Positions 44,975 through 64,000 of a stretch of 64,000 nucleotides of DNA are shown here, piece by piece (within the stretch, counting starts at the first letter, position 1; the number at the start of each line of letters is the position of its first letter). A model generated the notes under the pieces. It was not told the origin of the DNA. It worked only from the letters and a program-made list of their open reading frames with translations, and ran no database searches. The stretch is taken from NCBI GenBank assembly GCA_963710105.1, contig CAVPYV010000001.1, forward strand, positions 2,454,485 through 2,518,484, given 5' to 3'. Source of the DNA: an uncultured Chloroflexia bacterium. GTDB lineage: Bacteria > Chloroflexota > Limnocylindria > Limnocylindrales > CSP1-4. Position numbers and translations under genes: made by a program.

Positions 44975-45438
44975 AGGTCCGCGGCAGCCGCACGCTCGAG
45001 GCCCCGCGCGACGCGGTGTTCGCCGCGATCCTCGATCCCGAGAGCCTCCTCGGGGTCATCCCCGGCTGCCGCTCGGTCGAGCGGGTCGACGAGACGGAAT
45101 ACCACGCGACCATCGCGCTCCGGCTGCCGGGCATGGTCGGGACGTGGCGGACGGTCGTCCGGGTCGTCGACACGGACCCCCCGTCGTCCGGCGAGATCGA
45201 GGGCGAGCTCACGGGCGCGCTCGGCACGATCACCGGCCGGGCGACGTTCCGGCTGGCCGACAGCGACGGTGGGACCACCGTCGATTACGAGGGCAGCGCC
45301 GTGATCGGCGGCCCCCTGGCCCGGCTCGACTCGCGGTTCGTCGAGGGGCTCGCCGGCTCGCTCGTCGGCCAGGGCCTCGTCAATCTCGATGCGCGCCTCC
45401 GGGAGACGGCGCCGGAGACGGCGAGGGTCCGGGCATGA
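44971..45438 (+). CDS. SRPBCC / CoxG-family protein (accessory to molybdenum hydroxylases).
   Basis: About 155 aa. MKVRGSRTLEAPRDAVFAAILDPESLLGVIPGCRSVE is the CoxG fold. ATGA overlap. Confidence 0.7.
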   Translation: MKVRGSRTLEAPRDAVFAAILDPESLLGVIPGCRSVERVDETEYHATIALRLPGMVGTWRTVVRVVDTDPPSSGEIEGELTGALGTITGRATFRLADSDGGTTVDYEGSAVIGGPLARLDSRFVEGLAGSLVGQGLVNLDARLRETAPETARVRA

Positions 45439-46292
45439 CGGTCCGCGAGTACGCCCTGCCGCGATCCCTCCCGGCGGCCCTCGACCTGCTGGCGACGCGC
45501 GGCCCCGAGCTCCTCGTCATCGCCGGCGGGACGATCGCGATGCCCCTGATCAACGAAGGGCTCTCGCTGCCGGAGGCGGTGATGGGCCTCCGCCATGCCG
45601 GCCTCGGCGGCATCGACCGGGCCGGCGACACGCTCCGGATCGGGGCGACCGCGACGCTGACCGGGCTCCTCGAGCAGGACGCCGTCGAGATGCTCCGCGA
45701 GGCCGCCCGCAACACGGCCGCCTGGTCGGTTCGGAACATGGCCACCGTCGGCGGCAACCTCTTCACCCCGCCGCCGGGCGGCGACGTCGCGGTCGCCCTG
45801 CTGGCCCTCGACGCCACGGTGGCCCTTGCGAGCGCCCGCGGCGAGCGGACGCTGCCGCTGGCCGAGTTCTTCACCGGCTTCCTGACGACGGCCATCGCCG
45901 AGGACGAGCTGCTCGTCGAGATCCGGGTGCCGCTCTCGGGCGCCGCCATCGCCTCGACGGCGTTCCTCAAGCTCGGCCGGAAGCACGCCAACACCCCGTC
46001 GGTCGTGACCGTCGCGGTGCGGCTCGACTGGGAGGGCGCGACCGTCGCCGACGCCCGGATCGCGCTCGGCGCGGTCGGCCCGCATCCGATCCGCGCCCTC
46101 CGGGCCGAGCACCTGCTGCGCGGGACGAGCGTGGACCCTGCGTCGATGGCGGCGGCGGCCGCGGCGGCCGCAGCCGACTGCGAGCCCGCGACCGACGGCA
46201 TCGCCAGCGCCTGGTACCGCCGCCGGATGTGCGAGCTCCAGGTCGGCCGGGCCCTCGAGCGGGCGCGGGACGCCCGGAAGGACGGCGGCTAG
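45435..46292 (+). CDS. Xanthine-dehydrogenase-family FAD-binding (medium) subunit.
   Basis: LLVIAGGTIAMPLIN...ATVGGNLF is a CO-dehydrogenase flavoprotein-type FAD-binding domain. ATGA overlap. Confidence 0.8.
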   Translation: MTVREYALPRSLPAALDLLATRGPELLVIAGGTIAMPLINEGLSLPEAVMGLRHAGLGGIDRAGDTLRIGATATLTGLLEQDAVEMLREAARNTAAWSVRNMATVGGNLFTPPPGGDVAVALLALDATVALASARGERTLPLAEFFTGFLTTAIAEDELLVEIRVPLSGAAIASTAFLKLGRKHANTPSVVTVAVRLDWEGATVADARIALGAVGPHPIRALRAEHLLRGTSVDPASMAAAAAAAAADCEPATDGIASAWYRRRMCELQVGRALERARDARKDGG

Positions 46293-46799
46293 ATGGCATC
46301 GACGATCGTCGCCTTCGAGCTCGGCGGGCGGACCGTCGAGGTCATGGTCCGGCCGCTGACGACGCTCCAGGCGGTCCTCCGGACGCAGCTCGGGCGAACC
46401 GCGGCCAAGGAGGGCTGCCGCCAGGGCGGCTGCGGCAGCTGCACGGTCCTCGTCGACGGCGAGCCGATGCTGTCCTGCCTGCTCCCGGTCGAGGACGTCG
46501 CCGGCCGCCGGGTGACGACGCTCGAGGACCTGACCCCGGCCACCGGCCTCGACCCCCTCCAGCAGGCGTTCCTCGCGGCCAACGCCTTCCAGTGCGGCTA
46601 CTGCACGCCGGGCATGGTGATGATCGCCCGGGCCCTCCTGGATCGCGACCCGACGCCGAGCCGCGAGGACATCGCCATGGCCCTGACCGGCAACCTCTGC
46701 CGCTGCACGGGGTACGAGCCGATCGTCGACGCGATCGAGGCGGCGGCCGCGGCCGACGGCGACGGGGCAGCGACGGCCGACGGCAAGGGGCCGGCATGA
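46293..46799 (+). CDS. (2Fe-2S)-binding small subunit of the molybdenum hydroxylase.
   Basis: CRQGGCGSCTV (plant-type cluster) and CGYCTPG...NLCRCTGY (second cluster). Confidence 0.85.
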   Translation: MASTIVAFELGGRTVEVMVRPLTTLQAVLRTQLGRTAAKEGCRQGGCGSCTVLVDGEPMLSCLLPVEDVAGRRVTTLEDLTPATGLDPLQQAFLAANAFQCGYCTPGMVMIARALLDRDPTPSREDIAMALTGNLCRCTGYEPIVDAIEAAAAADGDGAATADGKGPA

Positions 46800-49211
46800 G
46801 CCCGGACCTCAACGTCGTCGGCCAATCGGTCGAGCGGAGCGACGGGATCGGCCACGTCACCGGGCGGACGATCTACACCGGCGACCGGACGTTCCCGGGG
46901 ATGCTCCACCTGAAGATGGTCAGGAGCCCCGCCCACCACGCCCGGATCCGCGGGATCGACCTGTCCGACGCCGCCCGCGTGCCGGGCTTCGTCCGGGCCC
47001 TGACCGCGGCCGACGTCCCCCACAACCGCTACACGATCCTCGGGCTCATCGGCGTCGAGCCGGAGGAGGAGTTCGTCCTCGCCGAGGACCGCGTCCGCTT
47101 CAAGGGCGAGGCGATCGCGGCGATCGTCGCCGAGACCGAGGAGGCCGCCCTCGAGGCGGTCGCCCGGGTCCGGCTCGACCTCGAGGAGCTGCCCGCGGTC
47201 TTCGACGTCGAGGAGGCCCTGCAGCCGGACGCTCCGATCGTGACCCACTGGGGCAACAACACGTTCATGTACGAGGGCCACCCCTGCCGCCGCGTCCGGC
47301 TCGGCGACGTCGAGGCCGGCTTCGCGGCGGCGGCCCACATCGTCGAGGGGGTCTACAACACGAGCCCGATCGAGCACGCCCCGCTCGAGACGACCGGCTG
47401 CATCGCCGTCCCCGAGGCGAACGGCCGGATGACCGTGTACACGAACACCCAGGCGCTGTACTTCAGCCTCGACAACACCTCGATCATCCTGCAGGTCCCC
47501 GGCAACCGGCTCCACTTCGTCGGCGGCACCGTCGGCGGCGGGTTCGGCGGCAAGGTCGACGTCATCGTCGAGCCGATCGCGACGCTCGCGGCGATGCTCA
47601 CCAACCGCCCGGTGCGCTTCGTCTACAGCCGCTCGGAGGAGATGCAGGTCTCGTCGACCCGGAGCGCGTGGCGGATCCGGGTGAAGGACGGCGTGGCCGC
47701 CGACGGCCGGATCCTCGCCCGCCAGGTCACGAGCTACGCCGACTCCGGCGCGTACAGCCGCCAGACCCCGTACGCGCTGACGAAGCACGCGGCCAACGCC
47801 GCCGGCCCGTACGCGATCCCGAACGTCTCGATCGACGCCTACTGCGTCTACACGAACCGCCAGCCGACGAGCGCGATGCGCGGCTTCGGGATCACGATGG
47901 CGTCGTTCGCGCTCGAGGTCCAGATGGACAAGATCGCCGAGCGGGTCGGCGTCGACCCGTGGACGATCCGCTTCCTCAACGCCTACCGCGACGGCGACCT
48001 GAAGCCGCATCGCAAGCTCGTCGAGGACGCGACCCTGATCGAGACGATGCAGGCGGCGGCGGAGCTCGTCGGGCACGAGCTGCCGGCGGAGCTCCGGGCG
48101 ATGACGTCGGCGCCGCGCGACGGGTCCGGGCCGCGCGACCCGGGTGCCCATCGTCCCCCAAGCCCGCCGGGGGTCGCTGACGATGGCGAAGCTGCGCGGC
48201 ACCGGCATCGCCGCGGTCAACTACCCGACCGGGATGAACCTCGGCGGCGACCCGTCGCAGGCGCTGATCCACGCCACGACGAGCGGCTCGTTCGTGGTGA
48301 CCCTCTCGGCCACGGATCTCGGCCAGGGGCTCCGGACGGTCATCGGCCAGATCGCGGCCGAGGTCATGGGCGTCCCGTTCGAGCAGATCGTCGTCGACAC
48401 CGCCGACACCGACACGGGCCCGCACGACATGGGCACGTTCGCCAGCCGGGCGACCCATCGCGTCGGGAACGCCGTGATCGCCGCGGCGACCGAGGCCCGC
48501 CGGGCCCTCCTCGACGTCGCCGCCGAGGAGCTCGAGGTCCTCGCCTCCGAGCTCGAGACCGACGGCCGCGGCAACCTGATGGTCAAGGGCGTGCCGGCCC
48601 GGTCGCTGAAGATCGCCGACGTTGCCGCGCGCGCCCAGTTCGTCCACGGCCGGACGATCGCCGGGCGCGGCGCCTGGATGAAGCCGCGCAGCGACGTCGA
48701 TCCCGAGACCGGGGCGATGGACCCCGACTCGACCGAGGCCCACGCCTGCACCGTCGCCGAGGTCGAGGTCGACACCGAGACCGGCGAGGTCGCCGTCCTC
48801 AGCATCCGGAGCGCCTACGAGGTCGGCCGCCAGGTGAACCCGGCCCTCGTCCGCGGCCAGATCGTCGGCGGGGCGTGGATGGGCATGTCGCATGCCCTGT
48901 ACGAGACGACGGCGCCGTACTACCCCGACGTCGAGCACACCGCCCGCGACTTCAGCGAGTACCTGATGCCGGGCCCCCTCGAGATGCCCGAGATCGAGTC
49001 GGTCGTCCTCGAGATGCCCTCGTCGAACGGGCCCTACGGGGTCAAGGGCGTCGGCGAGATGACCGCGAACTCGCCGATCCCGGCGATCGTCAACGCGATC
49101 TACCACGCGACCGGCGTCCGGATCGACGAGCTGCCGGTCACCCCGGAGAAGATCCTCCGCGGCCTCGACGCCCTCGCGTCGGCGGCCGCGCCGAACGAGA
49201 CGGAGGCCTGA
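46796..49211 (+). CDS. Xanthine-dehydrogenase-family molybdopterin-binding large subunit. One frame change near 48130-48180.
   Basis: a/b hammerhead; QPTSAMRGFGIT (the AxRGxG Mo-hydroxylase motif, not the CODH VAYRCSFR motif); the MoCo-binding 2 domain (GSFVVTLSATDLGQGLRT...) is in the +2 frame. Confidence 0.8.
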
Positions 49212-53128: not shown

Positions 53129-54010
53129 TCACCTCGTGATCGGCAATTCGGTCGAACTCGATCCTACGGGTTCGGGCACCCGGTGGCCCGACTGCTCCAT
53201 CACGTGGCCGTGCCCGTCGTCGAACCTGACTCGCATCGTCCAGCCGTCCCGATCGACCTGCCAACGGATCGTCTGGACGATGTCGCCGTCCTTGAGGTCC
53301 GTCTCCTCGATCGTCCGCTCATCGATCGCCCGGACGGACACGCTGGTCACGCGCGGATCGCCGACATACGGCGCCGGTTTTCCGTCGAGGGGCGCGCTGA
53401 ACGACCGGCCGAGCCGGTCCGACATCGAGAGGGCGCCGTCCTCGATCGCATAGACGGTGTCCTCGTCGTGGTCGACGAGATCCATCGCGACGACCTTCCA
53501 GCGGCCCGAGACGAGGTGGGCGTCCGCCTCCGGGGCGCCCACGCGGATGGCCGACGTGGCGAACATGACGGGCCGGCGGGCCGTGTCGGGGCCGACGAGT
53601 GGGGCGCGGACCGGCACCAGGACGCCGTCGAGCGGCATGGCCGCAGGCCACGTCTCGATCCGGGTCTGGCCATCGGCCGAAACCGTCGTCGTCGACTCGT
53701 AGACCACAGCTCCGTCGCGACGGCCGACCTGGCGCACGGTGTACGAGTCAACGACGATGACCGCGACGGTGTCGAAGCGCGGATGGTCGCCGACGGCATG
53801 GTCGAGCTCGTCGGCGGGAACTCGATACGGCGGGCGGCAGGAGAAGCACTCGTAGATCCCGTCGGCGAGGGAGGCCCGGTCCGGAGGCTGGTCGGGCCCG
53901 GGCGGTCCGTACTCGGGTCGCCACGTTCCGTCGAAGGCGCGCTTCAGCTTCGACAGGACGGCCGGCGCCGGCGTTGGGCCATCACTCGCCGGGGTCCGTC
54001 CGCTGGTCAT
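53129..54010 (-). CDS. Hypothetical protein with an internal tandem beta-rich duplication. It lies 6 bp downstream of the MetE-like gene.
   Basis: I recognised no family. Codon usage is consistent with coding. Confidence 0.45.
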   Translation of the reverse strand: MTSGRTPASDGPTPAPAVLSKLKRAFDGTWRPEYGPPGPDQPPDRASLADGIYECFSCRPPYRVPADELDHAVGDHPRFDTVAVIVVDSYTVRQVGRRDGAVVYESTTTVSADGQTRIETWPAAMPLDGVLVPVRAPLVGPDTARRPVMFATSAIRVGAPEADAHLVSGRWKVVAMDLVDHDEDTVYAIEDGALSMSDRLGRSFSAPLDGKPAPYVGDPRVTSVSVRAIDERTIEETDLKDGDIVQTIRWQVDRDGWTMRVRFDDGHGHVMEQSGHRVPEPVGSSSTELPITR

Positions 54011-54143
54011 CCGCGCAGCCTAGACCGGCCGAGCGCAGTCCGGACGCCATCTCCAAGAACGTCTGGCCATTCGGCGAGCTTGCCGAACGCATCGTTGACT
54101 TCGCCACCGGCGGTGCGAGACTGAAACAGGGGCCACGTGATCC

Positions 54144-54596
54144 ATGCACCGGAGGCGGTCCTTGCCTCGACGAATCGTGATCGTCGTGTTTGCGACGGTT
54201 GCATTTGCGATCGCCGTCCTCGGCGCGAGTCAGCTGGACCGAAGCGCCCACTCCGCTTTGCCGCTCGGCTTGGCCGTCGAGGATCCCGCTCCTCCGCTGC
54301 CATCCGGCGCTTCCTGGGCGTGTGCCCAGGCGCGCGCCGGGCCGGTTCGGGTGGCCCGCAATGGGCAGCTGCTTGTGTTCACGTCCCTCGACGGCAAGAG
54401 CACCGCCGATCTGATCTGGCCACGCGGATTCACCGCGCGACTTCTCGATGGACGGGCTGAGTTGGTGGCCCGCAACGGATCGGTGGTCGCGGAGGAAGGT
54501 GATGTTCTCGACGACTTGGGGGGCGGCGTCGGCGCGACGGGCAACGCGTTCCACGTCTGCTCTGTCGCCGGGAAGGGATACGACCCGGTTCCGTAG
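54144..54596 (+). CDS. Hypothetical membrane-anchored or secreted protein (150 aa).
   Basis: N-terminal hydrophobic segment IVIVVFATVAFAIAVLGA. It lies in the lower-GC block. Confidence 0.4.
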   Translation: MHRRRSLPRRIVIVVFATVAFAIAVLGASQLDRSAHSALPLGLAVEDPAPPLPSGASWACAQARAGPVRVARNGQLLVFTSLDGKSTADLIWPRGFTARLLDGRAELVARNGSVVAEEGDVLDDLGGGVGATGNAFHVCSVAGKGYDPVP

Positions 54597-54735
54597 CTAA
54601 CGGTTGACCAGGCTGCGACAGGTGCGGCCGGTCTCGGGCGATCGCCAGCACGTCGCCACGCGCAACGTGTCCGCCAATGACAGCTGGCGGCGTTGGTCCC
54701 GCATCCGCGACGGGCGAGCCCGATATGGTGGTGGC

Positions 54736-55212
54736 ATGCCAATGGTCGAGGTGGAGATCAAGTCCGTCGTTCGCGCACGAGACCGATTGGTGTTGAGCGC
54801 CGAGTCGTGGCGAGAGAACTCTCAGGAGTACTTCGAAGGGCCTGACGTCCGTGTCACGTTGACGTGTGATGCGATGACCGCGGAGTCCGTTCTACCTGCG
54901 TATGTCGCAGATGCCGAGCGCCTTGGCCCGTTGTTTCACGAGATCGATCGCGACTGGCGCGGATGGACCGGCGAGAAGGCCGCGGGTGTTCCGGGGCGAG
55001 ACTGGCTCTCCGCCACGGCGACGCATGACGGTCGTGGCCACGTGGCACTTGCTGTGTCGCTTGCCGCCGGATGGCCAGATGCTGCAGCCTGGTCGGTGCG
55101 CGGCACGTTGTTGATCGACGTTGGTTCGGCGGCCTCGATCGCAAGAGCATTGGACGATTTGTTGTTTGTCATCTGGCCGCCGGAGCACCGATGGCGAACC
55201 CCGACTGCCTGA
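54736..55212 (+). CDS. Hypothetical protein (about 158 aa).
   Basis: ORF with balanced composition in the lower-GC block. The start is chosen at MPMVEVEIK. Confidence 0.35.
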   Translation: MPMVEVEIKSVVRARDRLVLSAESWRENSQEYFEGPDVRVTLTCDAMTAESVLPAYVADAERLGPLFHEIDRDWRGWTGEKAAGVPGRDWLSATATHDGRGHVALAVSLAAGWPDAAAWSVRGTLLIDVGSAASIARALDDLLFVIWPPEHRWRTPTA

Positions 55213-55341
55213 GTTCAGCGCTCCTGCCTATTGGCGCTGATGTCAGCGAGCGCCCGCCAATGTCACCCGAAAGGGTGCGAGCCCTCGACTTCATCCCGAA
55301 CCTGGACTACTGCGATCCGCGGCGCGCCGGTCAGGGCGAGA

Positions 55342-56049
55342 TCACGGGGCCAGGGCGGGAAGGGTCTCGGTAGGGTTCGTCCTCGGGGTTGGCGGGACCT
55401 CTGTCGTGTCGCCCCTACCGTACGGACCAGGCTCGAACATTGTTGGCGTGCCCCCGATGACGGCACAAACAGGGTCCTCCGCCCAGTAGCCTCGGCCAAG
55501 GTCGATCCTGCCGCTGAACACCACGAGCCAGACAGCCGCATCCGTCTGTAGCTCCGGTTCGACCCCGCGAATTGGGACGTATCGGACCGCGTCCCTGGCC
55601 GATGCGACCAGGCCCATCTGAGCAACGTGCTCAATGCCAATGCGAGCGACCCCGCACGACTGTAATGCGGCAGCCGCCTCGGGAGTCGGATTGGATCGCG
55701 AGACCGCCTGAATTGCCATCGGGGCGTCGCCCGCAGCGGAGGGCGGTACAGACGTTGGAGGGATGCGAGTGTCGGATCCCTCGGTCTGAGGGGGCGCGCT
55801 GACGAGAATCGCCGTCGATGGCTCGGGAGGAACGTTGGTGTCAGGCATCTTCGACGCGCCCGGCGGCGGCGTCACCAAGCAGAACGGTGACTGAGCCGGC
55901 GATTGGCCGGGCGCGCACGGGACCGTGGGGACGGCGCCGCCGTGCGTGACCACCTTGGCGGGCTGACTCCCGAGGGCCACTACAGCCGCTGCGAGCCCGA
56001 CGACGACGACGAGCGCCAAGACGGCGACTCGAACGCTAACTAGCCGCAT
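55342..56049 (-). CDS. Hypothetical membrane-anchored protein with a Pro-rich linker and a C-terminal globular domain.
   Basis: MRLVSVRVAVLALVVVVGLAAAVVALGS signal anchor. GAGGGGG Shine-Dalgarno 7 nt upstream of the ATG at 56049. Confidence 0.45.
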   Translation of the reverse strand: MRLVSVRVAVLALVVVVGLAAAVVALGSQPAKVVTHGGAVPTVPCAPGQSPAQSPFCLVTPPPGASKMPDTNVPPEPSTAILVSAPPQTEGSDTRIPPTSVPPSAAGDAPMAIQAVSRSNPTPEAAAALQSCGVARIGIEHVAQMGLVASARDAVRYVPIRGVEPELQTDAAVWLVVFSGRIDLGRGYWAEDPVCAVIGGTPTMFEPGPYGRGDTTEVPPTPRTNPTETLPALAP

Positions 56050-56339
56050 CTCGAACCCCCTCGATGGTCGGCGACAGTCACTTCGCCCGCGGCCCCCCAT
56101 CGTAGGTTTCGCGGTCAAGCGCGCCTTTACGAGCCGAGCGTCACGAGCCCCGTGGGGCATGCAGTGGTGCAAGTCTCCCGTTGGGACACACCGTTGTCGC
56201 AAAGTTGCGCGGCAAGGTTAGGCGGGACCAACGCGTGCGCCGGGTCGGATAAAGCACTCCTTCCCAGACCACGAGGGCCGTCGGCCGCCAAGCGGGATGG
56301 TACAGACCTCGCCGCTCCTTCAGCGTGCGGGAATGGACA

Positions 56340-56615
56340 TCACTTCTTCTTCCAGCCGCTGAACTTGCGCCATGCGAGTCTGACGATCCCGAGCTCTTCG
56401 TCGGCCCAGCCCACCGGGTGATACTCCCCAAGCGGCGACGCGGACCCGTCGCGCATGGACTCCGGCTTTGTTCCCTTCGGCCAAGCCGTGATTCGGCCAA
56501 GGAGCGACAACGGAACCTGCTTCTCCTCGACCATCGTGCTGTCCCAGGGGCCACCGTAGAACTCGATCCATGTCGCACCGCGGTATCGAGCCCCTGGCCA
56601 GTCGTCGTTGTCCAT
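56340..56615 (-). CDS. Small hypothetical protein (91 aa).
   Basis: The composition is not GC-skewed (W/K/E-rich, ends in KKK), which is unlike the antisense noise ORFs. No Shine-Dalgarno is evident. Confidence 0.3.
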   Translation of the reverse strand: MDNDDWPGARYRGATWIEFYGGPWDSTMVEEKQVPLSLLGRITAWPKGTKPESMRDGSASPLGEYHPVGWADEELGIVRLAWRKFSGWKKK

Positions 56616-56662: not shown

Positions 56663-58800
56663 CTACGCGCGGCCGGCGGCGACCTCGTCCTCGCGGGTTC
56701 GGCCGGCGAGCTGGATCAGGTCCTCGTGGAGCTCGAACCAGATCCCGTGGTAGCTGTCGACCCGGGGTGAGGCGACGTAGCGGCCGTCACCGCCGAGGGC
56801 GGCCTCGAGCGCGCGGCCGAGCCTGATCCCGTACGCGGCAAGACGCGGACAGCCCGTCTCGACGGGACCGAGCCAGGCCAGCGCGTCGCGCATGGATCGC
56901 GGCCAGGTCGTCCAGCACCGCCTGGTCGTGGTCGGCGTCGGTGTGGTCGTTCGGGACCTGGCCACCCGCGCCGTCGTCGCGGAGCTGCCAGGCGGTGACC
57001 GCGTCCTTGACGCGGTGATCGAGGGCGACGAAGGCATCGAGCGCCGCGCCGGCGGCGTCGATCCCCCACCGCTCCTGCTCGGCGGCGAGGAGCTCCCGGA
57101 CCCGGGCGGTTCCCTCGTCGGTCAGGCGCAGGGCTCCGGCGGTCGTCCCGGTCAGGCCCTCGGCCTGGAGCCGGTCGAGGACCGGCTGGACCGCATCCAG
57201 CGGCGCGAGCACCGCGTCGGCGACGGCCTGCGGCTGGGCGAAGCCCTTGATCCCGATTGCGCGGAGGCAGTCGTCCGGGCTGGCGTCGCGCTCGGTCGCA
57301 GAGGCATCCGTTCGCGGCGGCGCCGCAGTGACGGGCTCGCCGATCGCGATCCCGAGCTCGCGTGACCAGTCGATCAGCGTCCGGGCTTCCGGCACGACCT
57401 CCGTCGTCGCGGCGACCACCCCGGCGAACACCTCGCCCGTGTCGCCGTCGATCGAGATCAGCTCGCCCGCAGCCAGGTCGCGCTCCCCGATCGTCACCCG
57501 GTCGCTGCCGACCTCGACGTCGGTCGCGCCGACCACCGCGGGGATCCCCCAGCCGCGCGCCACGACGGCCGCGTGGCTCGCCAGCCCGCCCCGCGACGTC
57601 AGGATCCCGGCCGCGCGGGCCATGCCATGGACGTCGTCCGGCGACGTCTCCGCCCGGACGAGGATCACGGTCCGCCCGGCCTCCGCGGCCGCCTGCGCCG
57701 CCTCCGGAGAGGTCACGATCTCGCCGCTCGCCATCCCCGGCGAGGCGGGCAGGCCGGTCGTCAGCGGGGTCGCCCGGCCGGCCCCGGCGATCGCCCGCGA
57801 TGGCGGATTCGCGAGGAGCGCCGCCACCCGCGTGACCGCTTCGGCGCGGGTCAGCGGGAAGCCCGGCTCCTCCGCCATGTCGACCGCGATCCGGAGGGCC
57901 GCCTGGGGACTGCGCTTGCCGACCCGGACCTGGAGCATCCAGAGCCGGGCCTCCTCGATCGTGAACTCGATGTCGCAGAGGTCGGCGTAGTGGCGCTCGA
58001 GCCGTGCCGCCGCCGCCCGCAGCTGGGCAGCCACCGCCGGCAGCCGCTCGTCGAGGACGGCGATCGGCTCGGTCCGGTGGGTGCCCGCGACGACGTCCTC
58101 GCCCTGCGCGTCGAACAGGACGTCGCCGTACAGGTCCGGCTCGCCGGTCGCGGGGTTGCGGGTGAACAGGACCCCGGTCGCGGAGTCCGGGCCGCGGTTG
58201 CCGAAGACCATCGCCTGGACCGTCACCGCGGTCCCGAGATCGTCCGGGATCCCCTCCTTCGCCCGGTACGCCCGGGCCCGGTCGCTGTTCCAGGACCGGA
58301 AGACGGCCTCGATGGCGAGCCGCAGCTGGGCCCATGGATCGCCGGGGACATCCGCGCCGCCGACGATCGAGCGGAAGCTCGCCACGAACCGCTCCCGGCA
58401 CGCCCGCGGCGAATGCCGCGCTCCCCGACGCCCGGCCGAGCCCGCCCTCGGTCGCATCGTTCAGGCCGAGGTTCAGGATCGTGTCCATCATCCCCGGCAT
58501 CGAGACCGGCGCGCCCGAGCGGACGCTGACGAGGAGCGGGTCGGCGGGGTCCCCGAAGCGGCGCCCGACGGCCCCCTCGACCGCCGCCATCCGGGTCCGC
58601 AGCTCCTCGTCCAGGCCGGCCGGCCAGCCGCCGGAGAGGAAGGTCCGGCAGGTCGCGGTCGTGATCGCGAACCCGGGCGGGACGGGCAGCCCGAGCTCGC
58701 GGGCCATGACCCCGAGGTTGGCCGCCTTGCCGCCGACGATCGCCTTCGCCTCGGCGAGGGTCGGCGCGACGGGCTCGTCGAGCGCGTAGGTGAGGGTCAT
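56663..58800 (-). CDS. Pyruvate-phosphate-dikinase-like PEP-utilising-family kinase. It has the ATP-grasp nucleotide domain and the swivel phospho-His domain but lacks the PEP/pyruvate TIM-barrel; a roughly 170-aa C-terminal region of unknown function replaces it. One frame change near 58450.
   Basis: KAIVGGKAANLGVMAREL...LLVSVRSGAPVSMPGMMDTILNLGLND (PPDK N-terminus); TAVTVQAMVFGN...GVLFTRNPATGE; GLPASPGMASGEIV...VILVRAETSPDDV...TSRGGLASHAAVVARGWG (swivel His). The ATG at 58798-58800 overlaps the TGA of the upstream gene. Confidence 0.75.
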
Positions 58801-61116
58801 CGGGTCGGGTCCTCCGGCTCGGCGGCCGGCGACGCGTCGCGGATGGCCCGCCAGACGCGCTCCGGGAGTGAGCGGCAGGTCGCGGATGACGGCGCCCGTG
58901 GCATCTCGCACCGCGGCCGCCACCGCCGGCGCGACGCACAGGAGGGCGCCCTCGCTCATCCCCTTCGCGCCGTACGGCCCGGGCCCGTCGCCGTTCTCGA
59001 CGATCTCGCTCTCCATCGAGCGCGGCAGGTCCATGCTCGTCGGGATCCGGTAGTCGATCGCGCCGAGGTTCCGGATCCGGCCGCCCTCGTCGAGGATGTA
59101 GTGCTCCATCAGGGTGTGCCCGAGGCCCATGACCGCGGCGCCCTCGTCCTGGCCCCGGACCTGGGCCGGGTTCAGCGCCCGGCCGACGTCCGAGACGGTC
59201 ACGTGGCGGGCGACGACCACGTCGCCGGTGGCGCGATCGACCTCGACCTCGACAGCGGTGCAGTTGAACTCGTAGAACGCGGCCGTCCCGCCGAGGGGGT
59301 GGTCCGGCTCGGCCTCCTTGCGCATCTCGCCGAGCCCGATGACCTCGCCGCCGAGCCGGCCGAGGCCGCGGGCGAGGACGTCGCGGATCGGCCACGCCCG
59401 CTCGCCGATCCGGACCTCGCCGCGGTCCACGACGATCCCGGACTCGTCGACGCCCTCGAGCCGGGCGGCCATCGTCCGGAGCTTCGCCTGGATGTCGCGG
59501 CAGGCGAGGAGGACGGCGTTGCCCATCAGGACCGACGACCGGCTGGCCGACGTCTGCTGGTCGTACGGGACGACCGCGGTGTCGCCCATGACGACGGTCA
59601 CCCAGTCGAGCGGCGCGCCGAGCTCCTGGGCCGCGATCTGGGCGAAGATCGTCCGGGCGCCCTGGCCCATGTCCGAGGTGCCGGCGAAGACGACGACGCT
59701 GCCGTCGGCGAGGAGCCGGACGGTCGAGTAGCTGAGCCCGGTCGTCGGCCCTTCCTTGAGCCCGACGGCGATCCCCCGCCCGCGGCCGGCCGGCGCCGGC
59801 GTCCCCCAGCCGATCCGCTCCGCGGCCCGGCGGAGGCTCTCCGCCCAGTGCCCGTCGGCCGGCGTGTCGCCGGGGAGGAAGGCGTCGCCGGTGTCCGCGA
59901 GGTTGCGCAGGCGCAGCTCGACCGGGTCGATGCCGAGGACTCCCGCGGCCTCGTTCATGTTCGACTCGACCGCCCAGATCTGCTGGGGGTTGCCGAAGCC
60001 GCGGAAGGCGGTCGAGGGCACGGTGTGCGACAGGACGCTCCGGGCGACGATCCGGACGGCCGGCGTCCGGTACGGCCCGTTCGAGGTGTAGCTGCCCTTG
60101 GCCACGGTCCGGTCGGCGATGTCGGCGTACGCCCCGATCAGGTAGTTCGCCTCGATGTCGCGGAAGACGAGCGCGCCGTCGCGGCGGAAGCCGGACCGGA
60201 CGCGGACCTCGGCCGCGCCGCGGCGGACGGCCTGGAACGTCTCCTCGAGGGTCAGGACGAGGCGGACCGGTCGGCCGGCTCGGCGGGCCATGAACGCGAG
60301 GAGCGGCTCGTACTTCGCGTGCTGCTTGCCGCCGAACGCGCCGCCCGGGTCGGGGGCGAGGATCCGCACCCGGGCGAGCGGCAGCTCGAGGAGCGAGGCG
60401 ATCACCCGCTGCAGCCAGTTCGGATGCTGGATCGAGCTCCAGACGGCGATCCCGTCGCCGTCGGGCGCGGCCATGAAGGCGTGCGGCTCGATCGCGAACT
60501 GGGTGACCATCGGGAACGTGTACGCCCCCTCGACGACGACCTCGGCGTCCGCCTCGGCGCGGGCGAGGTCGCCCCAGCCGTAGCGGTGCTCGCGGAGGAC
60601 GTTCGTGCCGGCCAGCGGGTCGCCCGGCCGGAGCGCCGGGTCCTGGACGAGCGGGCTGTCCGGGGCGAGCGCCGCGGCGATCGAGGTGCTCGCCGGCAGC
60701 TCGTCGTAGTCGACGCGGACGAGCGCGGCGGCCTCCTCGGCGGCGTCCTTCGTCTCGGCCGCGACGGCCGCCACCGGGTCGCCGTCGTAGGCCGTCTCGC
60801 CGACCGCGAGCACGGGCCGGTCGCGGAACTGCGGGCCGAAGCGGGGCATCGGGTCGGGCAGGTCCGCCGCGGTCATCACGAGGCGGACGCCCGGCACGCG
60901 GAGGGCGGCGCTGCTGTCGATGGATCGGATCCGGGCCCGGGCGCACGGCACCGTGACGAGCTTGACGTGGAGGACGTCCTCGAGGCGGAGGTCGGCGACG
61001 TAGGCCTGGCGGCCGGTGACCCGGGCCCGGCCGCCGACGCGCGCCGGCGAGGCGCCGACGACGGAGCCGTCCATGGGGTCCGGGCCGCCCGCAGCGCGGT
61101 CGCGCGCCGCGGTCAT
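58797..61116 (-). CDS. Xanthine-dehydrogenase-family molybdopterin-binding large subunit (second paralog). The C-terminus is probably frame-shifted: the native stop is the TGA in the ATGA overlap at 58797-58799, whereas the six-frame ORF reads on into the dikinase-like gene.
   Basis: RVTGRQAYVADL hammerhead; TAFRGFGNPQQIWAVES (canonical XDH motif); GQGARTIFAQIAAQELG...GDTAVVPYDQQTSASRS. Confidence 0.8.
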
Positions 61117-61681
61117 TGCGGCGCCACGCGGGCGTCGGGGGTCGCCGCCGGGTCGGTGGCGGGCGGCTCAACGGGGCGCCGCCGAGGGCGGGCTCGACGT
61201 CGGCATCGGGCGCCTCCGCCGCCAGGAGGACGGCCTCGATGATCTGCTCGTAGCCGCCGCAGCGGCAGAGGTTCCCGGCCAGCCCCTCCTCGACCTCGGC
61301 CCGGGTCGGGTGCGGCGTCGTCGCGAGGAGCGCCCGCGCGGCGACGAGCTGGCCGGGGATGCAGAACCCGCACTGCGCCGCGCCCGTGTCGAGGAACGCC
61401 TGCTGGAGCGGATGGAGGCGGTCGCCGGACGCCAGGCCCTCGACCGTGGTGATCGCGGCGCCGTCGACCTCGACCGCGAGGACCAGGCACGAGTCGACGC
61501 TCACGTCGTCGACGAGGACGGTGCAGGCGCCGCACTCGCCGACGAGGCAGCACTCCTTCGTGCCGGTCAGGTCCAGGTCGTCGCGGAGGACCTCGAGGAG
61601 GGTGTGGTGGGCGGCCACGTCGAGCGAGCGAGGGCGGCCGTTGACGGTGAGCTCGATCCGGACGGTGGCCGTCGACGTCAT
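61113..61681 (-). CDS. (2Fe-2S)-binding small subunit (second paralog). One frame change near its C-terminus.
   Basis: ECCLVGECGACTV...CGFCIPG...NLCRCGGY. The stop TGA overlaps the large-subunit ATG (ATGA) only in the +2 frame (ORF 61113..61724). Confidence 0.8.
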
Positions 61682-62544
61682 CGCGGATCCCCTCCGAGGC
61701 GGGCGAGCGCCGTCGCGATCGCACGGAGGCCGAGGACGTGGAGCATCGCGAGGCGGTACTCGGGGCTCGCCCGCATCGAGCGCGGCGACGGGCTGGCGTC
61801 GACGAACAGCGCCTCGAGCCGCTCCATCTTCGCGGCCTCGGGCGCCGCCGGATCGGCGAGGACGCCGGTGTCGTCGGTCACGAGGAGCGGACGCGGGCCG
61901 AGGCTGCCGTAGGCCAGCCGCGTCACGCCGCCGGGCCGGATCGCGCAGGCCAGGGTGACCGAGGCGAGGTCGTGGCCGCGCCGCCGCGTCCGGCGGACAT
62001 GGACCGACCCGACCGGCCCGGCCGGCAGGGGCAGCTCGATCGCGGTGACGAGCTCGTCGGCGGCCAGCGTCGTGACGCCGGACCGGACGAACACCTCGTC
62101 GATCGGGATCCGCCGGGTCCCGGCGGGGCCACTGGTGACGACGGTCGCGTCGTGGACGAGGAGGGCCGGTGCCGTGTCCGCGGCGGGCGAGGCGTTGCAG
62201 ATGTTGCCCGCGAGCGTCGCCCGGTTCCGGATCTGGACCGAGCCGACGACCGCCGCGGCCTCGGCCAGGCCCCGGAAGTGGCGCCGGACGCGCTCGTCGG
62301 CGGCGATGTCCGTCATCACCGTCGCCGCCCCGATCGAGAGGCGCCCGTCGCGCTCGGCGATCGCCCCGTCGAGCTCGGCGATCCGCTTGACGTCGACGAC
62401 GACGCGCGGCCGGATCGTGCCGTCGCGGAGGCGGATGATCAGGTCCGTCCCGCCGGCCAGCAGCCGGGCGTCCGGGCCGTGCTCCACGAGCAGGCCGATC
62501 GCGTCGGCGAGGCGGGTCGGCCGCTCGTAGCTGAAGGCGCGCAT
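61678..62544 (-). CDS. Xanthine-dehydrogenase-family FAD-binding subunit (second paralog).
   Basis: ARLLAGGTDLII...ATLAGNICNASPAAD is the CoxM/XdhB-type FAD domain. ATGA overlap with the small-subunit start. Confidence 0.8.
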   Translation of the reverse strand: MRAFSYERPTRLADAIGLLVEHGPDARLLAGGTDLIIRLRDGTIRPRVVVDVKRIAELDGAIAERDGRLSIGAATVMTDIAADERVRRHFRGLAEAAAVVGSVQIRNRATLAGNICNASPAADTAPALLVHDATVVTSGPAGTRRIPIDEVFVRSGVTTLAADELVTAIELPLPAGPVGSVHVRRTRRRGHDLASVTLACAIRPGGVTRLAYGSLGPRPLLVTDDTGVLADPAAPEAAKMERLEALFVDASPSPRSMRASPEYRLAMLHVLGLRAIATALARLGGDPR

Positions 62545-62554
62545 CGGCCGGGCC

Positions 62555-63442
62555 CTAGAGGACCCGATCGACCTCGTCGAGGAGGACCTGCGGCGTCGCC
62601 GCCCGGATGAAGTAGAAGGGCCGCTCGGCGAAGCGCCGGACGAAGTCGGTCCGGGCCGCCCGGAGCTCGTCGGTGTCGACGATCGGCATCGCGATCCCCG
62701 GCGCCAGGAGCTCGTTGAGGAGGAAGTAGCCCTGGACCGAGTGGAACGCCTGGAACTGGCGCTCGAACGGGATCATCGGGGCGCACGCCGGGTCGAAGTT
62801 GCCGTCGATCGCGGGGACGACGACGACATCGACGAGGCTGGGCTCGCTGTGGACCTCCCACGTCGGCATCTCGTGGAAGAACTTCTCGACGCCCCGCTCG
62901 GGGGCGGCCTTGTCGGCGCGCTCGGTGCCCTCGGTCCGCTTCTTCAGGAACGACTGCTTCGACCCGACCACCGCCACGCCGCCGTCGTCGATCACGGTCG
63001 TCTCGGTCGAGACGAGGCGCGCGCCGCGGCGGCAGGCCTCGATCTGGCCCATCGACTTGCCGTGGTTCGACTCGCCGCCGAGGAACAGGACGGTCCGGTC
63101 GCGATAGCGGACGGCGGAGGCGTGGAACGGGTGGAGCCCGACCGCCTCCATCCGCAGGGCGAGGAGCGTGACGACGACCTTCTGGATCGGGCCGGCCGGC
63201 CAGGCGCCGCCGAACAGCATCCGCCGCCCGTCGTACGAGATCCCCCGATCCGCGTCGCGATCCCAGATGACGTCGGGCTCCGGGAGGCTGACCTGCAGCG
63301 CGATCCGGACGTCGGCCAGGCGGTAGTTCAGGAAGCTCATGTCGTCGAGGACGTGGTCGATCGGCTCGCCGCCCCGGACGTCGATCCGGAGCCGGGCCGG
63401 GCCGGCGGACAGCTCCTCGGAGAGCTGGAGTCTGGTGATCAT
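62555..63442 (-). CDS. HPr-kinase/phosphorylase C-terminal-domain-like P-loop protein (HprK-related kinase-like). It is the first gene of the Mo-hydroxylase operon.
   Basis: HASAVRYRDRTVLFLGGESNHGKSMGQIEACRRGARLVSTETTVID matches the HprK C-domain pattern (HASAV...G.SG.GKS...G..L.sDD.v.i) with Walker A GESNHGKS. GGAAGGA Shine-Dalgarno upstream of 63442. Confidence 0.6.
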   Translation of the reverse strand: MITRLQLSEELSAGPARLRIDVRGGEPIDHVLDDMSFLNYRLADVRIALQVSLPEPDVIWDRDADRGISYDGRRMLFGGAWPAGPIQKVVVTLLALRMEAVGLHPFHASAVRYRDRTVLFLGGESNHGKSMGQIEACRRGARLVSTETTVIDDGGVAVVGSKQSFLKKRTEGTERADKAAPERGVEKFFHEMPTWEVHSEPSLVDVVVVPAIDGNFDPACAPMIPFERQFQAFHSVQGYFLLNELLAPGIAMPIVDTDELRAARTDFVRRFAERPFYFIRAATPQVLLDEVDRVL

Positions 63443-63467
63443 CGGGTCCTTCCCGGCGCTCGGCGGC

Positions 63468-64000
63468 TCACGCGTCGGGTGCCTCGTCGACGGGCCAGCG
63501 GGCGGCCATGTCGGCGCGCACCTGGTCGAAATGGCGGCGGAGGGCCTCGACGACCGCGTCGCCGTCGCGCCGCTCGAGGGCCGCGAGGATCGGGCCGTGG
63601 AGGTCGGCCGACCACGCCAGGTCGGCGCCCGGGACGCTCAGGGTGAGGTACGTCCGGGAGAACGGCTCGAGGGATCGCCAGACCTTCTCGAGCATCCCGT
63701 TGTCGGCGGCCTGGACGATCCGCTCGTGGAAGCGGGCGTCGGCCGCGGCGACGGCGTGGCCATCGGCGTGCTCGGCCGCGGCGCGCATCGCCGCCAGCGC
63801 CTCGGCGAGGTCCCGGAGGTCCGCATCGGACAGGCGGGTCGCCGCGAGCCCGGCCCCGAACGCCTCGATCGCCGATCGGACGGCGTAGGCCTCGATGACC
63901 TCGCGCCGCGACGGGCGGCGAACGCGCGCCCCGCGGAACGGCAGGATCTCGACGACGCCGAGCGCCTCCAGGCCGCGCAGCGCCTCGCGGACCGGGGCCT
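63468..64000 (-). CDS. GntR-family (FadR/FCD) transcriptional regulator. It is truncated by the window edge; the N-terminal HTH lies beyond 64000.
   Basis: PVREALRGLEALGVVEILPFRGARV (end of the wHTH), then an FCD domain ...FHERIVQAADNGMLEKVWRSL... The stop is at 63468-63470. Confidence 0.7.
   Translation of the reverse strand, partial: APVREALRGLEALGVVEILPFRGARVRRPSRREVIEAYAVRSAIEAFGAGLAATRLSDADLRDLAEALAAMRAAAEHADGHAVAAADARFHERIVQAADNGMLEKVWRSLEPFSRTYLTLSVPGADLAWSADLHGPILAALERRDGDAVVEALRRHFDQVRADMAARWPVDEAPDA

Follow-up and report, generated by a model that had tools for sequence, protein, structure and literature searches.

Mycobacterium tuberculosis Rv1127c is a short relative of pyruvate, phosphate dikinase (PPDK) that lacks the pyruvate domain and is autophosphorylated on His422 with ATP/Mg2+ (PMC13400623, EMBO Rep 2026). 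It steers methylcitrate cycle flux, is needed for virulence and was renamed VadK. Reported partners of VadK are methylcitrate synthase and dehydratase, both encoded close to it, and its action reportedly does not run through transcription. VadK is a virulence-linked histidine autokinase with no known phospho-acceptor (PMC13400623). Rv1126c is named only in the Methods of that study, as an "operonic partner"; its co-expression raises VadK solubility, and 2 M NaCl is needed to wash it off (PMC13400623). The VadK paper does not deal with what Rv1126c does. Here, we describe a gene at 56663..58800 (minus strand) of a 64,000-nt stretch of DNA from an uncultured Chloroflexia bacterium (assembly GCA_963710105.1, contig CAVPYV010000001.1, positions 2,454,485–2,518,484; hereafter the window). 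Its product is predicted from sequence to be a natural covalent fusion of the VadK/Rv1126c-type pair, in which the Rv1126c step of the assignment is positional.

The coding sequence (CDS) begins at an ATG at 58800–58798 and ends at a stop at 56665–56663, the same coordinates as in the initial annotation of this DNA. GC content at third codon positions (GC3) is 0.9–1.0 along the entire interval, and in a codon-position GC plot the coding frame switches twice inside the gene, near 58400–58450 and near 56940. Inspection at the DNA level traced each break to one extra base. The first is a GGG where GG is expected (58403–58405), inside the PPDK_N domain in the conserved ..GSAAFAA/ACRERFVASF.. (the slash marks the break). 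The second is an extra C (cat gcg C gac) at 56888, inside the C-terminal helical bundle at ..LAAIHA/DALAWLGP.., where homologues read ..IHADA.AWL.. in one frame. Deleting the two bases gives a 2136-nt CDS with one stop that encodes 711 amino acids (aa). Three-frame translation reproduced each peptide quoted in the initial annotation, so the unusual PPDK-like open reading frame (ORF) that it described is present. The protein consists of three modules: an ATP-grasp domain, a swivelling histidine domain, and a winged helix followed by a helical bundle.

Residues 1–483 make up the PPDK-like part. The ATP-grasp nucleotide-binding domain (PPDK_N, Pfam PF01326, 7.9e-49) spans aa 17–345 (57765..58752, minus strand) and contains SMPGMMDTILNLGLND and TAVTVQAMVFGN. 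The swivelling phospho-histidine domain (PEP-utilizers, Pfam PF00391, 3.1e-24; PEP, phosphoenolpyruvate) spans aa 377–456 (57432..57671, minus strand). Motif alignment and the reconstructed CDS place the catalytic histidine, His409 of GGLASH in GGLASHAAVVARGWG, at 57573–57575 (minus strand). A 26-aa low-complexity Ala/Pro/Thr linker (aa 484–509; 57273..57350, minus strand) separates the His domain from the C-terminal module and differs in length and sequence among homologues. The initial annotation had counted about 540 aa of PPDK sequence; a PPDK-like N-terminal and central part is indeed present, but it is about 483 aa long, plus the 26-aa linker.

The first two modules belong, by sequence, to the Rv1127c (VadK) short PPDK family. 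NCBIfam model NF004531, for the short "pyruvate, phosphate dikinase" proteins that include M. tuberculosis Rv1127c, is matched at 505 bits against a curated cut-off of 456, and identity to the VadK orthologue of Mycobacterium basiliense is 47% (E 4e-90). In the alignment with that orthologue the His motif GGLASH409AAV stands opposite GGASSHAAV, at the position equivalent to VadK His422. The protein thus resembles VadK in its ATP-grasp and swivel-His domains, the missing PEP/pyruvate barrel, the NF004531 match and the retained His motif. It differs in that the two M. tuberculosis proteins are here one polypeptide joined by the 26-aa linker. It also differs in setting: VadK is encoded with methylcitrate-cycle genes in a pathogen, M. 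tuberculosis, and the window gene lies in a xanthine-dehydrogenase-family operon in an uncultured Chloroflexota bacterium from soil (Limnocylindria type), with an additional protein related to rifampicin phosphotransferase (Rph-like) in related loci.

Canonical PPDK (TIGR01828; PDB 1dik, 5jvn) shares the ATP-grasp domain, the His domain and a linker helix with the window protein, and has a PEP/pyruvate TIM barrel that the window protein lacks. The TIGR01828 score is 526 against a cut-off of 843, and the score for PEP synthase falls far under its NCBIfam cut-off. Solved PPDK structures align (phmmer, 5jvn, 1.1e-116) only to about residue 532 of 874, a stretch that takes in the ATP-grasp domain, the swivel domain and the linker helix behind it, and that stops before the barrel. 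Pfam gave no PF02896 match, and neither Pfam nor NCBIfam gave any family in the last 245 aa. The absence of the barrel, as claimed in the initial annotation, is therefore borne out by Pfam, the TIGR01828 score and the PPDK structure alignment alike. Because the barrel is absent, the protein cannot interconvert pyruvate and PEP.

The protein does not match rifampicin phosphotransferase (RPH), with which the initial annotation proposed an alignment: NF041857 scored 65 bits against a cut-off of 999, and only the ATP-grasp part matched. RPH and PigC/RedH share ATP-grasp plus swivel-His chemistry with the window protein, and the Rph-like gene of related loci carries Rph_4th and a His domain. The domain order of RPH is ATP-grasp, substrate, His, whereas the window protein reads ATP-grasp, His, X, without a rifampicin-binding-type domain. 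Phenylphosphate synthase of Thauera (PpsA/PpsB/PpsC) is a PEP-synthase-like multi-component dikinase that acts on a hydroxylated aromatic substrate. Its ATP-binding and substrate/His parts are on separate proteins, and a third small helper protein is a CBS-domain protein. Compared with it by description only, the window's ATP-grasp protein differs in keeping its own His domain, and the third component is winged-helical rather than CBS.

The C-terminal module was modelled with AlphaFold2 from a family alignment at a predicted local distance difference test score (pLDDT) of 89 and a predicted template modelling score (pTM) of 0.85. The model shows a winged helix-turn-helix (wHTH) followed by long helices. 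The wHTH covers aa 510–571 (57087..57272, minus strand), lies at domain residues 11–62 in the model and is defined by AlphaFold2, Foldseek and a profile match. The bundle covers aa 572–711 (56666..57086, minus strand), ends in ..AGRA, and when modelled alone has a pLDDT of 95.5. Foldseek against the PDB matched the winged-helix part only, at probability 1.0, to the wHTHs of MarR, AspA and DtxR/IdeR (E >= 8e-3), with O-methyltransferase dimerisation domains also among the matches. A sequence profile searched against PDB sequences matched DtxR/MntR-type winged helices over the first ~70 residues only (DtxR-like 8pvt, E 3.5e-5). The helical, winged-helix-like segment that the initial annotation had placed where the TIM barrel would be is thus supported by the pLDDT of 89 and the Foldseek wHTH matches. 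The Foldseek search of the residues after the His domain that it suggested found the winged helix; the bundle had no PDB match. Against the PDB, neither the whole domain nor the bundle alone gave anything at E <= 0.001, and the best bundle E value was 0.38. Weak bundle matches to talin, the Tar ligand-binding domain, OspC and prenyl-diphosphate synthases were set aside as generic helical bundles, and no meaning was drawn from them. No Pfam family covers the bundle, and across 40 members Pfam gave just weak wHTH-type matches.

Conservation is concentrated in the bundle. Among 40–47 diverse members nearly all of the ~20 invariant residues lie there, and the winged helix has almost none. In domain numbering the invariants are F81, K89, W95-Q96, N108, H110, D112, D116, R150, G161, D172-S173, H175, W178-F-E-L-H-E183 and R193. 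They form the family motifs K..WQ, NxHxDxxxD, R, DSxHxxWFELHE and R, and most members end ..AGRA. The same invariants are kept near mycobacterial vadK, in xanthine-dehydrogenase-family operons, in an Amycolatopsis terpene-synthase/cytochrome P450 (P450) cluster and in a Gordonia operon. Since identical residues recur in such different genomic settings, the bundle site probably binds something common to all of them, such as the phospho-His domain, a metal or phosphate, and a pathway-specific substrate is unlikely. This conservation speaks against the initial suggestion of a substrate-specificity module, as the invariants are identical across pentose-phosphate/hydrolase, xanthine-dehydrogenase and terpene/P450 loci.

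The module is the mark of a large family. A query spanning the second frameshift matched 754 proteins; of the best 120, the majority span the whole region, at 53–80% identity. A profile built from 18 module domains retrieved 1730 representatives at the 50% clustering level. Half of the top 150 representatives (75) are stand-alone modules of ~200 aa. Fused forms of ~715–785 aa carry the module behind ATP-grasp and His domains, as in a 726-aa Nocardia RefSeq "pyruvate, phosphate dikinase". Five proteins of 761–783 aa (P0184, P0190, P0201, P0208 and P0235) have the architecture Rph-like, His, module, and one of 1049 aa (P0239) has Rph-like, His, ATP-grasp, His, module. Wherever it is fused, the module is C-terminal to a swivel-His (PEP-utilizers) domain. 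The initial annotation had called the domain novel. It is uncharacterised, with no Pfam family or PDB homologue, but it belongs to a widespread family, stand-alone and fused, that includes the mycobacterial gene overlapping vadK.

A scan of one genome per species gave 80 loci, the closest of which (76% identity) are metagenome-assembled genomes (MAGs) of Chloroflexota/Limnocylindria, and the more distant are from Acidimicrobiia, Anaerolineaceae and Dormibacterota. Searched by tblastn with the reconstructed 711-aa protein, 58 of the 80 loci encode the intact fusion, residues 1–711, in one frame. The fused form is the norm in this clade, and public genomes already contain many such fusions, labelled "pyruvate, phosphate dikinase". 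Many of the 200–420-aa database "proteins" are frameshift fragments or are cut by contig ends. The frequent fusion, the invariable placement of the module after the swivel-His domain and the sharply conserved H/D/E/R site appear not to be described in the literature searched.

The link to Rv1126c comes from the stand-alone members. Slow-growing mycobacteria encode 201-aa stand-alone modules, mostly named "MarR family transcriptional regulator". The last 4 nt of the M. basiliense vadK orthologue are shared with a 201-aa module gene, whose product is 37% identical to the window module end to end (200 aa, E 4e-34). Beyond the module gene lie genes of the wax ester synthase/diacylglycerol acyltransferase-like (WS/DGAT-like), hydrolase, 6-phosphogluconate dehydrogenase (6PGD) and glucose-6-phosphate dehydrogenase (G6PD) types, which we take to be the counterpart of the H37Rv Rv1125–Rv1121 neighbourhood; the module gene would thus stand where Rv1126c does. 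Among the 120 matches listed in a protein search, M. tuberculosis Rv1126c itself was absent.

Two actinobacterial loci show other arrangements. Amycolatopsis japonica (L085, 2543–7942) encodes a stand-alone module and an ATP-grasp/His pair after a terpene synthase and two P450s. Gordonia westfalica (L086, 6001–9745) has an operon of module, ATP-grasp/His and Rph_4th/His genes near P450 and acyl-CoA ligase genes.

In the window, the gene lies in a minus-strand operon. Directly upstream is the molybdenum subunit of a xanthine-dehydrogenase-family enzyme (58797..61116, minus strand; Pfam Ald_Xan_dh_C, MoCoBD_1 and MoCoBD_2), which scores under every NCBIfam equivalog cut-off. The ATG of the fusion gene and the TGA of the corrected molybdenum-subunit gene share an ATGA overlap (58797..58800, minus strand), which indicates translational coupling of the two genes; the same 4-nt overlap occurs in a related locus, L002. 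Further upstream on the same strand are the [2Fe-2S] subunit (61140..61681, start 61681) and the flavin adenine dinucleotide (FAD) subunit (61678–62544), both part of the conserved operon. Between the FAD subunit and the regulator is a 295-aa protein with a P-loop-like "GGESNHGKS" motif (62555–63442, minus strand). It has no Pfam or NCBIfam family and a marginal PEP-carboxykinase match (E 0.034), and it is kept at the same position in 34 of 84 related loci. A GntR/FCD regulator fragment (63443–64000, minus strand) runs off the end of the window. The same gene order is found in 59–63 of the 84 loci. No prp (methylcitrate) genes are present among the neighbours; they are xanthine-dehydrogenase-family subunits and the GntR/FCD regulator instead.

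In related loci the operon is headed by a gene for an Rph-like protein of ~595 aa (62 of 84, including L001 and L002). This protein carries Rph_4th and swivel-His (PEP-utilizers) domains. It has no ATP-grasp domain, as it matches just the C-terminal ~55% of RedH/PigC/PEP-synthase-like models, and it scores under the cut-off of the PRK08296 "hypothetical protein" models. Rph-like and dehydrogenase genes co-localise in 62–63 of the 84 loci. The sole ATP-grasp domain of the cluster is in the fusion protein.

Directly downstream of the gene is a ~2.5-kb stretch (53881–56431) with lower GC content (~65%) and a weak codon-position signal. A DUF6228 protein (54604–55212, plus strand) and a Pro-rich protein with an N-terminal hydrophobic segment (55342–56202, minus strand) are encoded there, and the stretch has no counterpart among the genes downstream in related loci.

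We tentatively favour, at somewhat less than even confidence, a multi-component phospho-His dikinase, in which the hand-off role of the module and delivery to a small molecule are inferred. The ATP-grasp domain with ATP/Mg2+ would phosphorylate His409 of the swivel domain, the activity shown for VadK His422. The Rv1126c-like module would occupy the place of the PPDK barrel as a putative second docking and hand-off site for the phospho-His domain, and in its bundle the invariant His/Asp/Glu/Arg cluster would handle a metal or phosphate in all family members alike. The phosphoryl group would then be passed to, or used together with, the separate Rph-like protein, which would provide a substrate-binding domain and its own swivel His. 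The final acceptor would be a small molecule from the same pathway as the co-transcribed xanthine-dehydrogenase-family hydroxylase. Natural fusions (P0184 and P0239) connect the module with the Rph-like and ATP-grasp proteins.

Several points weigh against this mechanism. We know of no Rv1126c-like protein with demonstrated phosphotransfer, metal binding or substrate. An Rph-like gene next to this operon is presumed by analogy with related loci, as the window stops at position 64000, before the place where it would stand. No such gene was found within 9 kb of the M. basiliense locus, and a small-molecule dikinase therefore cannot be the rule for all members. The ATP-grasp protein retains its own His domain, which is superfluous in a simple split of the PpsA/PpsB type. 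Docking of His409 on the bundle is a putative step. The identification of the M. basiliense gene as the positional orthologue of Rv1126c is drawn from its position and the gene order assumed for H37Rv. Finally, VadK in M. tuberculosis was proposed to be a protein-protein regulator of methylcitrate enzymes (PMC13400623).

That last proposal leads to the main rival, a regulatory kinase acting as VadK does. The protein would be autophosphorylated on His409, and its module would bind and tune the xanthine-dehydrogenase-family complex post-translationally, with the bundle as a sensor or adaptor and no small molecule involved. The reported binding of VadK to methylcitrate enzymes encoded nearby, without transcriptional action, is the model for this reading, although the VadK interaction models themselves are of low confidence (interface predicted template modelling score, ipTM, 0.36–0.41; PMC13400623). 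The ATGA coupling to the molybdenum-subunit gene and the linkage in 63 of 84 loci fit it as well. So does the resemblance of the module to DtxR/MntR metallo-regulators, which combine a wHTH with a helical domain (wHTH E 3.5e-5) and whose layout is compatible with ligand sensing. However, fusion and co-localisation with an Rph-like protein that lacks an ATP-grasp domain suit an enzymatic multi-component kinase better; RPH, PigC/RedH and PEP synthase, to which that protein is related, have been characterised as small-molecule enzymes. We regard the regulatory kinase as a real possibility but an unlikely one; regulatory and dikinase modes may both exist.

The remaining rivals concern the frame breaks and the module itself. 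The frame changes mentioned in the initial annotation are single-base insertions and not a feature of the protein; both are most likely assembly errors, with an indel-prone assembly (indel, insertion or deletion) as the simplest reading. This conclusion rests on three observations. First, 16 of the 80 loci in the tblastn comparison hold broken copies; these are 16 of the 36 loci from long-read "MFD ... contig_" MAGs, and none of the 38 loci from short-read MAGs is broken. Second, the breakpoints vary from locus to locus. Third, at least three more indels disrupt other conserved genes of the window. The molybdenum-subunit gene has an extra C (CCC for CC, 58864–58866, minus strand) ahead of the conserved C-terminus ..LPLTPERVWRAI..; the corrected subunit ends ..EDPTR and a stop. 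The [2Fe-2S] gene (~61140–61681, minus strand) has no in-frame stop until 58223. Its relatives end ~10 aa past "EAVL.AA.A", and a TGA in the next frame follows GCGCCCCGTTGA at ~61165, so another indel in this gene is likely from the sequence. A second, unrelated xanthine-dehydrogenase-family cluster (45389–49211, plus strand) has a large subunit that shifts frame at ~48100–48150, among CCC/GGG/CCCCC runs, and whose first frame is then stop-free for 796 codons. This change is also probably an assembly indel, and the whole contig is probably indel-prone. GC3-based frameshift scans of the whole window were too noisy for error counts, and only individually inspected cases are used here.

Two long ORFs that run through the locus were rejected as artefacts of missing stops in the off-frames of GC-rich DNA combined with indels. 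One is a 1466-aa chimera (56716..61116) that involves the CCC lesion at 58864–58866, and the other is an ORF of 1152 aa (58223..61681). Programmed frameshifting was ruled out, since the breaks are confined to long-read MAGs and fall at different points in different loci. A naturally split gene, as L002 might suggest (496 aa and 210 aa with a 4-nt overlap), was also ruled out. The C-terminal frame of L002 reads back through the His domain, and L002 is therefore itself frameshifted.

If both insertions were instead real, the gene would be a true pseudogene in this genome, with no full-length protein made. In favour of this are three to four frame-disrupting insertions in 4.3 kb of one operon, of which the one at 56888 is not in a homopolymer. 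Yet past each shift GC3 does not fall below 0.9 and no invariant residue is lost, broken relatives are found only in long-read MAGs and each at a different position, and an unrelated gene ~9 kb away bears the same type of lesion. We consider a pseudogene improbable, and less likely than an assembly error.

A DNA-binding role for the module is less probable still. On this reading the module would be a MarR/DtxR-type transcription factor, and the protein a one-component sensor in which phospho-His governs binding to DNA. The database name "MarR family transcriptional regulator" on many stand-alone homologues speaks for it, as do fold matches of the wHTH to MarR, MntR and IdeR and weak Pfam wHTH matches in some members. 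The module also shares with DtxR, MntR and MarR the fold and the layout of a wHTH followed by a His/Glu/Asp-rich helical domain. It differs from these regulators in its acidic recognition helix, in a bundle that does not align with the DtxR/MntR metal-binding domain and in the constant link of its family to PEP-utilizers proteins. Helix 3, the "recognition" helix, has a mean net charge of -2.2 over 47 members and is acidic in nearly all of them (-2 in the window protein), and the domain pI is ~5.4. The bundle holds ~20 invariants and the wHTH almost none, and wHTHs also act as dimerisation modules, for example in the O-methyltransferases matched here by Foldseek. By RNA-seq, deletion of vadK gave no sign of transcriptional control over the methylcitrate genes (PMC13400623). 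Together, the acidic helix 3, the scarcity of wHTH invariants, the pI and the lack of transcriptional effects argue against DNA binding, despite the "MarR" annotations. The names in use are probably misleading for both forms: fused proteins and fragments called "pyruvate, (ortho)phosphate dikinase" have no pyruvate domain, and stand-alone proteins called "MarR family transcriptional regulator" have an acidic recognition helix.

The last alternative, allowed for in the initial annotation, is that everything past the His domain is out-of-frame noise and the protein ends there; it has next to no chance of being correct in view of the 754 matches, the 1730 representatives, a single frame in 58 of 80 loci, a confident AlphaFold2 fold and coding GC3.

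A bolder version of the dikinase reading is possible, though we think it unlikely. The bundle may be an unrecognised catalytic or phospho-acceptor domain that replaces the PEP/pyruvate barrel, so that VadK-type proteins would be complete three-module dikinases, fused or split. If so, the invariant H/D/E/R site would take the phosphoryl group from the swivel His. The module and its Rph-like partners in environmental bacteria would then be a new family of multi-component small-molecule kinases tied to hydroxylases of the xanthine-dehydrogenase, P450 and Rieske types.

Many Chloroflexota, Acidimicrobiia and Nocardia carry the VadK- and Rv1126c-type parts in one polypeptide. This fusion, with the module always after the swivel-His domain, is gene-fusion evidence that points to the Rv1126c-type protein as the missing functional third module of VadK. 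The invariant residues make a short list for mutagenesis, and orthologues from non-pathogens are tractable. The main value of the finding is that it makes the role of Rv1126c in VadK signalling directly testable.

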